A stretch of 64,000 nt of DNA from Gemmatimonadota bacterium. Lineage in GTDB: Bacteria; Gemmatimonadota; Gemmatimonadetes; Longimicrobiales; RSA9. The stretch spans positions 27,086 to 91,085 of the forward strand of contig JBBEBA010000054.1 in NCBI GenBank assembly GCA_040882575.1. The letters are read 5' to 3'. A model generated the notes under the pieces. The model did no database searches and had not been told where the DNA came from. It saw only the letters and a list, made by a program, of their open reading frames with translations. Each line of letters begins with the position of its first letter. The first letter of the stretch is position 1. The translations under genes and the position numbers were made by a program. Positions 54,988-55,728 of this stretch are shown here, in pieces.

Positions 54988-55728
54988 GGGAATGTTTACG
55001 TGTACGGATAGAGGGTGAGGCCCATGCGCACGTTTACGGGCAATGGGCAGGAGTAAGGTCACGTGAGCATTTGGCCTGACTGGCCATTCCTCTGCCCTTA
55101 CGGCGGAGCCAACCTGCACGTGTGGCGAGGCGCGAACACATTGGAGGCATGATGCAGACAGTTGAACCGATGCTCGATCACGAGCGGCTGGAGGTGTACC
55201 AGCTCGCGCGGCAGCATGCACGGGAATGCGCAGCTCTGATCGCGCAGTTGCCGCGAGGGCGTTCGGATGCGCTGGAACAGTACCGGCGGGCGAGCCTGTC
55301 GCTGCCGCTCAACGTCTCGGAGGGCGCGGGCGAGTTCGCGCCGAGAGAGAAGGCGCGGCTCTACCGGATCGCGCGCCGTTCAGCCGACGAGTGCTCCGCC
55401 CTGCTCGATCACCTGGTCGACGTGGACATGGCGACCACTGAGCAGATCCGCCCCGCCAAGCAGCTGCTCCGCAGGATCGTCGGCGCAATGGTAAAGCTCA
55501 TCCAGTCGACGGATAGGGTGACGGGGAGGTGGCCGGCGTCCGTGCCCCGCCCGCCTACCGGCTCAGGGGCGTGAGACGACCGGGTACGTTTACGTACACG
55601 AGCACGGGTCAGGCCCATGCGCAGGTTTACGAGGATGTGTACGGGCATGGTCACGTGACCGTGGACGTGCTCCTGCACGTAAACGTGCGCATGGGCCTCA
55701 CCCTCTGTCCGTACACGTAAACATTCCC
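54988..55728. mobile_element. putative inverted-repeat-bounded cassette carrying a four-helix-bundle gene
   Basis: 51-bp arms (54988-55038 / 55678-55728), 50/51 identical in inverted orientation; no transposase; mobility is inferred, not shown. Confidence 0.55.
55152..55574 (+). CDS. four helix bundle protein (23S rRNA IVS-protein/Avd-like fold)
   Basis: HERLEVYQLA...EQYRRASLSLPLNVSEGAG...EKARLYRIARRSADECSALLD; GGAGG RBS at 55143-55147; antisense to flanking genes. Confidence 0.9.
   Translation: MQTVEPMLDHERLEVYQLARQHARECAALIAQLPRGRSDALEQYRRASLSLPLNVSEGAGEFAPREKARLYRIARRSADECSALLDHLVDVDMATTEQIRPAKQLLRRIVGAMVKLIQSTDRVTGRWPASVPRPPTGSGA

Follow-up and report, generated by a model that had tools for sequence, protein, structure and literature searches.

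What keeps the two arms of an inverted repeat almost identical when they enclose nothing but a small gene? The question is raised by the spacer between thrS and groEL in a 64,000-nucleotide stretch of DNA, hereafter the window, which belongs to contig C54 of the source genome. We refer to this genome as G000 and to its relatives by further G-numbers, with C-numbers denoting contigs of the named genome. A first-pass annotation of the window had suggested three ways in which such arms might arise: recent insertion, selection for pairing in a transcript, or an invertible segment. We examined the anatomy of the locus, the enclosed protein, the distribution of the arm sequences within and among genomes, and the surroundings of homologous genes in other phyla.

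Anatomy of the cassette

The near-perfect 51-bp inverted repeats described in the first-pass annotation are real. The 51-nt string at 54988-55038 is the reverse complement of 55678-55728 with one mismatch, and none of 100 dinucleotide-preserving shuffles gave any such match. A repeat search delimited near-perfect arm cores of 55 nt at 54988-55042 and 55674-55728, which are 96% complementary with 631 nt between them. Weaker similarity had been reported to continue inward, and whole-genome self-BLAST bore this out by extending the pair to 89 nt at 86.5% identity (54982-55070 and 55647-55733), a range within which the inward GGTCACGTGA similarity falls. On the basis of the inverted-repeat pair and of family copies at other loci, the left arm spans 54979-55070 and the right arm 55646-55741, each being one unit of a dispersed repeat family and the right arm being the inverted one.

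A third arm copy, overlooked by the first-pass annotation, lies inside the cassette in direct orientation, with 55606-55631 being 92% identical to 55013-55038. The repeat search and an alignment of units placed this inner unit at 55585-55660. It is oriented as the left arm and pairs locally with the right arm, so that the two form a hairpin at the right end of the cassette (55606-55654 with 55655-55703, 80%). The cassette as a whole measures ~760 bp, of which 741 nt form the element between the outer core ends.

Only one sizeable ORF lies between the arms, at 55122-55574 on the plus strand, with ATGs at 55149 and 55152. Counted from the first of these, the gene occupies 55149-55574 and encodes 141 aa. 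A ribosome-binding-like GGAGG, read from the sequence at 55143-55147 on the plus strand, ends 1 nt before the first ATG and 4 nt before the second, which is a short spacing in either case. The gene is antisense to both of its minus-strand neighbors, which were confirmed with Pfam: thrS at 52956-54899 (TGS, tRNA_SAD, tRNA-synt_2b, and HGTP_anticodon domains) and groEL at 55822-57459 (Cpn60_TCP1, 287 bits). The earlier description of a single enclosed antisense ORF with its own GGAGG was therefore accurate.

The first-pass annotation had also placed the cassette beside the groEL terminator, which held in part. On the minus strand, a hairpin of 21 bp with a U-run after it (55750-55795; minus-strand fold, z -3.7) is a plausible groEL terminator and lies ~10-20 nt from the right arm, but a consensus terminator scan did not flag this hairpin. 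A sub-threshold Rfam hit to ctRNA_pGA1 at the same place (27 bits versus a gathering score of 45) was taken as chance. Rfam identified no rRNA in 54000-57000, and a sigma-70 scan of 54800-55900 found no promoter. Separately, we observed that a motif upstream of the ATG, GGCCATTC..CTGCCC, is conserved in G000, G001, and G005, and by eye its GG and GC stand at sigma-54-like spacing.

The enclosed gene encodes a four-helix-bundle protein

The enclosed ORF had been labeled as an IVS/Avd-like four-helix bundle, and comparison with profile HMMs upheld this identity. It matched PF05635 with 61 bits (cut-off 33.8) and TIGR02436 with 57 bits (cut-off 24), and it is a four-helix-bundle (4HB) protein of the PF05635/TIGR02436 kind, variously named S23p, 23S_rRNA_IVP, or Avd-like. 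At the sequence level it also matched a solved Xanthomonas protein, 2GSC (E 7e-4). An AlphaFold2 model built on a 4-sequence alignment (pLDDT 83.2) predicts four long helices. The best Foldseek matches of the ORF were the S23p structures 2GSC and 2RLD (probability 1.0, TM 0.86-0.89 normalized to the target), with Avd (4DWL and 8UB7) ranking after them.

Comparison of 4HB orthologues at this locus gave dN/dS values of 0.30 between G000 and G001 and 0.054 between G001 and G003 (pS 0.32), which shows that the protein is under purifying selection. The copy in G005 is possibly frameshifted because its two tblastn segments fall in different frames.

Dispersed copies of the arm sequence

The high identity of the arms had been read as a sign of recent insertion. 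When the 741-nt element was compared with its own genome, it gave 30 matches, nearly all of them to the arms, and a short-query BLAST of the arm gave 17 HSPs on 9 contigs. One of these copies, on G000:C28, is 96% identical to the left arm over 49 nt. Nineteen repeat units align over ~80 nt around a conserved core, and this ~80-nt family is present at 9-11 loci in G000. Its units occur solo, as ~150-nt hairpins with short loops (C42, C78, C10, and C69), back to back, and as flanking pairs. A further solo unit lies within the window itself at 49692-49762 (G000:C54:76777-76847), as identified by its genome match and the unit alignment. Because the arms belong to a dispersed family, their near-identity is no evidence of a private recent event, and the argument from arm identity to recent insertion does not hold.

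The locus and its arms in relatives

The thrS-groEL neighborhood is conserved across the order. A 4HB gene occupies the spacer in G001, G005, G003:C125, and G008, where it is always antisense to its neighbors, although the G001 contig ends before thrS and that of G003:C125 ends before groEL. A short spacer without the 4HB gene was found in G004, G003:C160, G011, and G015, and that of G004 holds a degenerate solo unit. The cassette is therefore present or absent at this position among relatives. Comparison of the spacer across relatives, as proposed in the first-pass annotation, accordingly had two outcomes: the cassettes of G001 and G005 have inverted arms too, and the gene is missing from the four short spacers. 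The arms of G001 and G005 have species-specific cores, with the differences common to both arms of each species.

Arms of the G001 type gave 15 matches in G001, 26 in G003, and 7 in G005, with none in G000 or G004. Conversely, arms of the G000 type gave 16 matches in G000 and one weak match in G001, with none in G003, G004, or G005, so that no arm of either type was found in G004. Orthologous cassettes within the same genus carry arms matching a MITE-like family of their own genome, and these families are lineage-specific.

Alignment of 14 gene-less copies, taken from G001, G003, and G005, revealed foldback elements of 260-340 nt, with ~80-nt arms, sharp common termini, and an inner palindrome. 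They share only the arms with the 4HB cassette. No obvious target-site duplication was seen in these 14 aligned copies. Two search attempts for empty sites in the genus found none, and neither a clean pair of filled and empty sites nor a transposition event was seen. 

We considered several ways of relating the cassette to other elements and rejected them. Gene-less copies are not simple deletion derivatives of gene-bearing ones because arms of the C6 type elsewhere enclose an unrelated 281-nt interior, with only the arms shared. Plain insertion of a gene into the loop of a pre-existing hairpin was set aside for two reasons: the cassette in the window contains an additional inner unit, and the inner palindrome seen in gene-less copies is missing from the G001 cassette. 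By eye, the ends of the arms do not agree with the core-site consensus of integron attC sites. A loose regular expression for the terminal motif proved non-specific in G000 and was dropped.

No transposase with matching termini was found in the interiors that we read, which were those of the 4HB cassettes, the peptidase pair on G000:C28, and an arm pair on G001:C173 that encloses an IS3 inserted into a gene-less copy. Among the matches listed, the remaining pairs of G000- and G001-type arms are 149-265 nt apart, too close to hold a transposase. At the level of the genome, Y1 transposase (RAYT, PF01797) had 0 matches in G000, and the same search was positive in 6 control genomes; reverse transcriptase (PF00078) had none anywhere in the assembly, for which marker genes indicate 100% completeness. 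The earlier statement that the window contains no reverse transcriptase or transposase thus extends, for these two families, to the entire assembly.

Maintenance of the arms at the RNA or DNA level

One explanation for the likeness of the arms is that they are selected to form a stem in a transcript, as in the intervening sequences (IVSs) of rRNA. Cleavage of this stem by RNase III would then govern the stability or expression of the 4HB mRNA, or would excise the cassette from groESL-thrS read-through transcripts. The first-pass annotation had anticipated a long stem with the ORF in its loop, and the locus does have this form: in silico folding of the RNA from either strand gives a closing stem of ~70 bp (z -10.7 and -14.7 relative to shuffles), and the layout matches the IVS of Coxiella, for which RNase III excision is described in PMC4990558. 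The co-variation of the arms between species fits this explanation as well, and the position of the cassette between the terminator and the start of thrS makes read-through possible.

A stem maintained for pairing in RNA should tolerate G:U wobble, however, and the arms did not display such tolerance. Across 50 bracketed 4HB loci, the non-Watson-Crick arm positions on the sense strand comprised 76 G:U, 65 A:C, and 195 others, meaning there was no excess of G:U over A:C (binomial p 0.40). This result argues against selection for arm pairing, the second origin suggested for the identity of the arms. Moreover, the arm sequence itself is conserved and is common to dispersed gene-less copies. The arm of G003 is 92% identical to that of G001, whereas the two enclosed genes differ at 32% of synonymous sites, which implies that the arm sequence is constrained or homogenized. 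A minor point against the RNA-level explanation is a 10-of-12 promoter-like site between the left arm and the ORF at one AT-rich locus (L079), the promoter scans of three such homologous loci being otherwise uninformative. Together, the lack of wobble tolerance, the conserved arm sequence, and the sharing of arms with gene-less copies favor maintenance at the DNA level, and we consider selection on a transcript stem to be on the whole unlikely.

The layout recurs around PF05635 genes

Given that REP- or MITE-like hairpins are abundant, the arrangement might also be a coincidence, wherein a resident 4HB gene happens to have family copies in both of its spacers without any functional link. Several features of the genomes agree with this explanation, including the many repeat families of G000 (~91 array loci) and the degenerate solo unit in the gene-less spacer of G004. 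Copies of these repeat families likewise flank ordinary genes of G000, two of them for M20-like peptidases (C7 and C28) and a third on C61. The peptidase gene on C28 is bracketed by units of the same family as the cassette arms.

Against coincidence stands the regularity with which PF05635 genes are bracketed. Flanking inverted repeats accompany all five PF05635 genes of G000, four of them found by BLAST and one by eye. The arms found by BLAST measure 31, 51, 68, and 46 nt at 91-98% identity. Each gene has a different arm sequence, and all but one of the five types occur dispersed, at 9, 15, at least 55, and 10-15 loci. A minus-strand self-BLAST of G000 yielded 22 inverted HSPs within 2 kb. 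Genome-wide, four inverted-repeat loci had a gap of 400-1000 nt, and three of these four bracket 4HB genes, of which the genome has five. Assuming ~3500 genes, the chance of such an outcome is roughly 1e-8.

The same layout was evident far beyond this genome. We compared 80 homologous loci from Longimicrobiales, Chlamydiae, Nannocystaceae, Planctomycetota, Verrucomicrobia, Acidobacteriota, Legionella, and others. An inverted pair tightly brackets the gene at 44 of them, spanning unrelated phyla and different arm sequences, while 36 are without an inverted repeat, including 16 of the 17 loci from one Chlamydiae assembly. When arms were scored with Smith-Waterman alignment, 36 of 68 loci with full flanks passed, versus 1 of 135 control windows displaced by 1.5 kb, these controls being mostly coding and unmatched to intergenic DNA. 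None of the bracketed loci searched with Rfam (40 of the 44 positives) is in rRNA; the G000 assembly contains no 23S rRNA gene.

Dispersal of the arms is similarly widespread. The arm of a Nannocystaceae cassette had 65 matches, with at least three copies of the cassette and many 100%-identical arm ends located at contig ends. The arms of a Parachlamydiaceae and a Verrucomicrobia cassette had 36 and 18 matches in their respective genomes. Overall, the arm family also occurred away from the cassette in six of the seven genomes searched with a cassette arm (G000, G001, G003, G005, and three from unrelated phyla).

These results establish the layout of a gene between inverted arms as a recurrent one for PF05635 genes, seen in many phyla and outside rRNA. 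They make coincidence distinctly improbable as an explanation of the cassette. The locus exemplifies a wider regularity that we did not find in print: a search of full-text literature, with subscription journals and supplements outside its reach, found no report that connects free-standing PF05635 genes with either inverted repeats or MITE-like families.

Phased ACG arrays in the arms

Arms from distant phyla contain periodic units of 6 or 7 nt with ACG in phase (CGT on the other strand). Periodicity reached at least 0.6 in 12 of 35 arms versus 0 of 62 controls. Strict arrays, having at least four phased ACG, were found beside 30 of 86 4HB genes, as compared to 2 of 140 displaced windows (Fisher 1.6e-12). 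These arrays are not exclusive to 4HB genes because they are common across G000, where 121 arrays at the ~91 loci stand against five 4HB genes; a 1-Mb shuffle contained none. For G000 taken alone, an intergenic repeat of a general kind, with a mere tendency to adjoin small genes, would also fit, since arrays outnumber 4HB genes and repeat families flank ordinary genes.

We also tallied a five-fold ACG hexamer across relatives. The median number of matches was 4 in 23 relatives with PF05635 and 0.5 in 8 without it, a difference that is confounded by phylogeny because one family (f2) is without both, and a reversed-pattern control also matches in several genomes. The tally includes G020, which is unpublished and has no PF05635 and 0 matches; we make no claim on G020 alone.

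Short tandem repeats have been described next to such genes before, as PMC4990558 describes tandem heptamers upstream of the S23p ORF in the Coxiella IVS. In addition, a figure legend in PMC10910872 lists "23S rRNA IVP" among genes linked to CRISPR arrays. It is purely a guess on our part that arm arrays mistaken for CRISPR arrays are behind this entry.

Inversion and retroelement origins

The third suggestion of the first-pass annotation was an invertible, and hence phase-variable, segment that flips between its inverted repeats. Long inverted repeats around a small, promoter-less antisense gene are what such a segment would look like. However, there is no recombinase ORF in the cassette, and the 4HB gene has the same orientation in all five genomes that carry it at this locus. 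Contigs of three DNA runs from one study were colinear over 54570-55721, with a break in the right arm, and showed at the cassette neither a strand-switch nor a skip joint that would mark inversion or excision, which counts for less than the other two points in that contigs drop rare variants. Inversion is therefore a very improbable explanation. That the gene is the Avd accessory gene of a diversity-generating retroelement (DGR) is practically out of the question: 4DWL and 8UB7 are among its Foldseek matches, but the gene is not a DGR Avd because the assembly is without reverse transcriptase, and its closer matches in both fold and sequence are the non-DGR S23p proteins 2GSC and 2RLD.

A proposed foldback element with a four-helix-bundle gene

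The explanation that we favor is that the cassette is a free-standing, IVS-type foldback element with a 4HB gene, maintained at the DNA level, which may be mobile and whose arms may be bound by its protein. Our confidence in this reading as a whole is evenly balanced. The arrangement points to a mobile element, and the 4HB protein probably binds the arms. Under the foldback-element reading, what preserves the likeness of the arms would act on DNA: they would be the terminal repeats of an element that is selfish, mobile, or was once mobile, or else they would be homogenized with the rest of their family. The 4HB protein, being the sole coding capacity common to the cassettes, would recognize the arm arrays, and gene-less copies would be non-autonomous derivatives. 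A transcript spanning both arms would still form the ~70-bp stem and could be cleaved by RNase III as in rRNA IVSs, although we regard this as following from the structure rather than as what maintains it. A 4HB protein is not known to have any catalytic activity, so another enzyme would have to move the DNA.

A wider hypothesis extends this explanation to the protein family, which we offer tentatively as a possibility still on the unlikely side. PF05635 4HB proteins (S23p/IVP), which are the non-DGR relatives of Avd, may be the cognate arm-binders of a widespread class of transposase-less foldback elements. This class would encompass ORF-bearing rRNA IVSs, free-standing cassettes such as the present one, and lineage-specific MITE-like derivatives. 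A pentameric ring would read arm arrays of some five ACG triplets set in a 6- or 7-nt phase, with protein and arms co-evolving.

If true, reading the 4HB protein as a cognate arm-binder would explain the purpose of the IVS ORF, a question open since the early 1990s. Ralph and McClelland proposed in 1993 that this ORF encodes a mobility component, as cited in PMC4990558, which itself describes the function of the S23p/IVP family and the origin of ORF-bearing rRNA IVSs as unclear. In any case, a stem with an ORF in its loop is not a design peculiar to rRNA and is the usual setting of PF05635 genes in many phyla. The shared arms and the phased ACG motif provide concrete candidate substrates for the 4HB protein, namely its own arms.

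Comparison with known systems

The IVSs of 23S rRNA that carry an S23p ORF, as in Coxiella burnetii and Leptospira, resemble the cassette in having a PF05635 protein, a stem around the ORF that is closed by terminal inverted repeats, a size of a few hundred nucleotides, and short direct repeats near the ORF. PMC4990558 describes the Coxiella IVS as an element of 428-444 nt with a 28-bp stem and heptameric repeats upstream of the ORF. In contrast to these IVSs, the cassette lies between the protein-coding genes thrS and groEL rather than in a 23S helix, its arms are longer (55-90 nt), and the arms constitute a dispersed family with gene-less copies. Its gene is antisense to the neighboring genes and is under purifying selection, whereas the Coxiella ORF is described in PMC4990558 as decaying.

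MITEs and foldback transposable elements that have an autonomous partner share with the cassette the long terminal inverted repeats in many dispersed copies and the lineage-specific families. They also share the combination of many short, gene-less copies with few gene-bearing ones that have common termini. The cassette differs in that the gene-bearing form is without a recognizable transposase, no target-site duplication was seen, and gene-bearing and gene-less copies have only the arms in common.

REPINs are palindromic doublets that lie dispersed in intergenic DNA and have no target duplications. The arm family is like the REP/REPIN-RAYT system in these respects. It is different in that the assembly has no PF01797, the units are longer at ~80 nt, and the associated gene is that of a 4HB protein.

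The Avd protein of DGRs forms a pentamer and binds both nucleic acid and the reverse transcriptase. PF05635 is described as homologous to Avd in PMC10053308, and the two have a homologous four-helix-bundle fold. Unlike a DGR, the cassette is accompanied by neither a reverse transcriptase nor template and variable repeats.

TRAP binds phased GAG/UAG repeats. Its fold is unrelated to that of the 4HB protein, and the comparison is by analogy only, but TRAP ring proteins would offer a parallel for an oligomeric ring that reads a short triplet at a fixed spacing.

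Inverted repeats beyond the cassette

The window holds further inverted repeats besides the arms of the cassette (54988-55042 and 55674-55728). A second pair occupies positions 51260-51660 of the window (G000:C54:78345-78745), with arms of approximately 60 nt that are 84% identical and an interior of 281 nt. The arms share homology with the arms of another cassette in the same assembly, on contig C6, which carries a four-helix-bundle (4HB) gene, and the two interiors are unrelated. Within the 281-nt interior, an ORF of 18 codons comes after an AAGGAG. In the region upstream of groES, short tandem units of the GCGGGAC type form an inverted pair whose halves lie 105 nt apart (window 58001-58218; G000:C54:85086-85303), and their family is also found on contigs C79 and C94 of the source assembly.

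Heptamer repeats form another family, which connects the window to a 4HB gene elsewhere: the (ACGTGAA)n locus at window positions 27616-27665 (G000:C54:54701-54750) is one of at least 55, and the arms around the 4HB gene on contig C66 belong to this family. Hairpins of the same family stand at both sides of genes on contigs C7 and C61.

Arms without the gene and genes without arms

Among the inverted-repeat pairs of the source assembly with gaps of 400-1000 nt, only one does not enclose a 4HB gene. In this pair (G000:C92:7872-8412), arms of the GCAGAG type surround 475 nt in which we found no convincing ORF. Contig C77 and the groEL-thrS spacer of the relative G014 contain similar arms. In the same-genus genome G001, an IS3-family element (orfA and orfB; G001:C173:2100-3900) is inserted inside one of the gene-less foldback copies. 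One Chlamydiae assembly carries 17 paralogous 4HB loci, with flanking inverted repeats at 1 of the 17 by the test used. In this lineage the 4HB family has expanded without detectable arms.

The thrS-groEL spacer

A 4HB gene also lies within the thrS-groEL spacer of another genus (G008:C129), with an additional hydrophobic ORF on its upstream side and, past the gene, a (GGGATCG)n hairpin. Three orthologues (window 55090-55115 and the G001 and G005 cassettes) share a conserved GGCCATTC..CTGCCC motif located 35-60 nt before the start of the 4HB gene, and by eye the distance between its GG and GC is sigma-54-like.

Read by eye, the source assembly (window 54900-54987) and G001 retain only the U-run of a candidate thrS leader, adjoining the left arm. 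Because only this U-run remains there, the cassette may have displaced the leader. By the same inspection, the thrS strand in the spacers of three relatives (G005, G014 and G015) carries a stretch of ACG (Thr) codons upstream of thrS, after which come a hairpin and a U-run. In its sequence, this arrangement looks like a threonine leader/attenuator.
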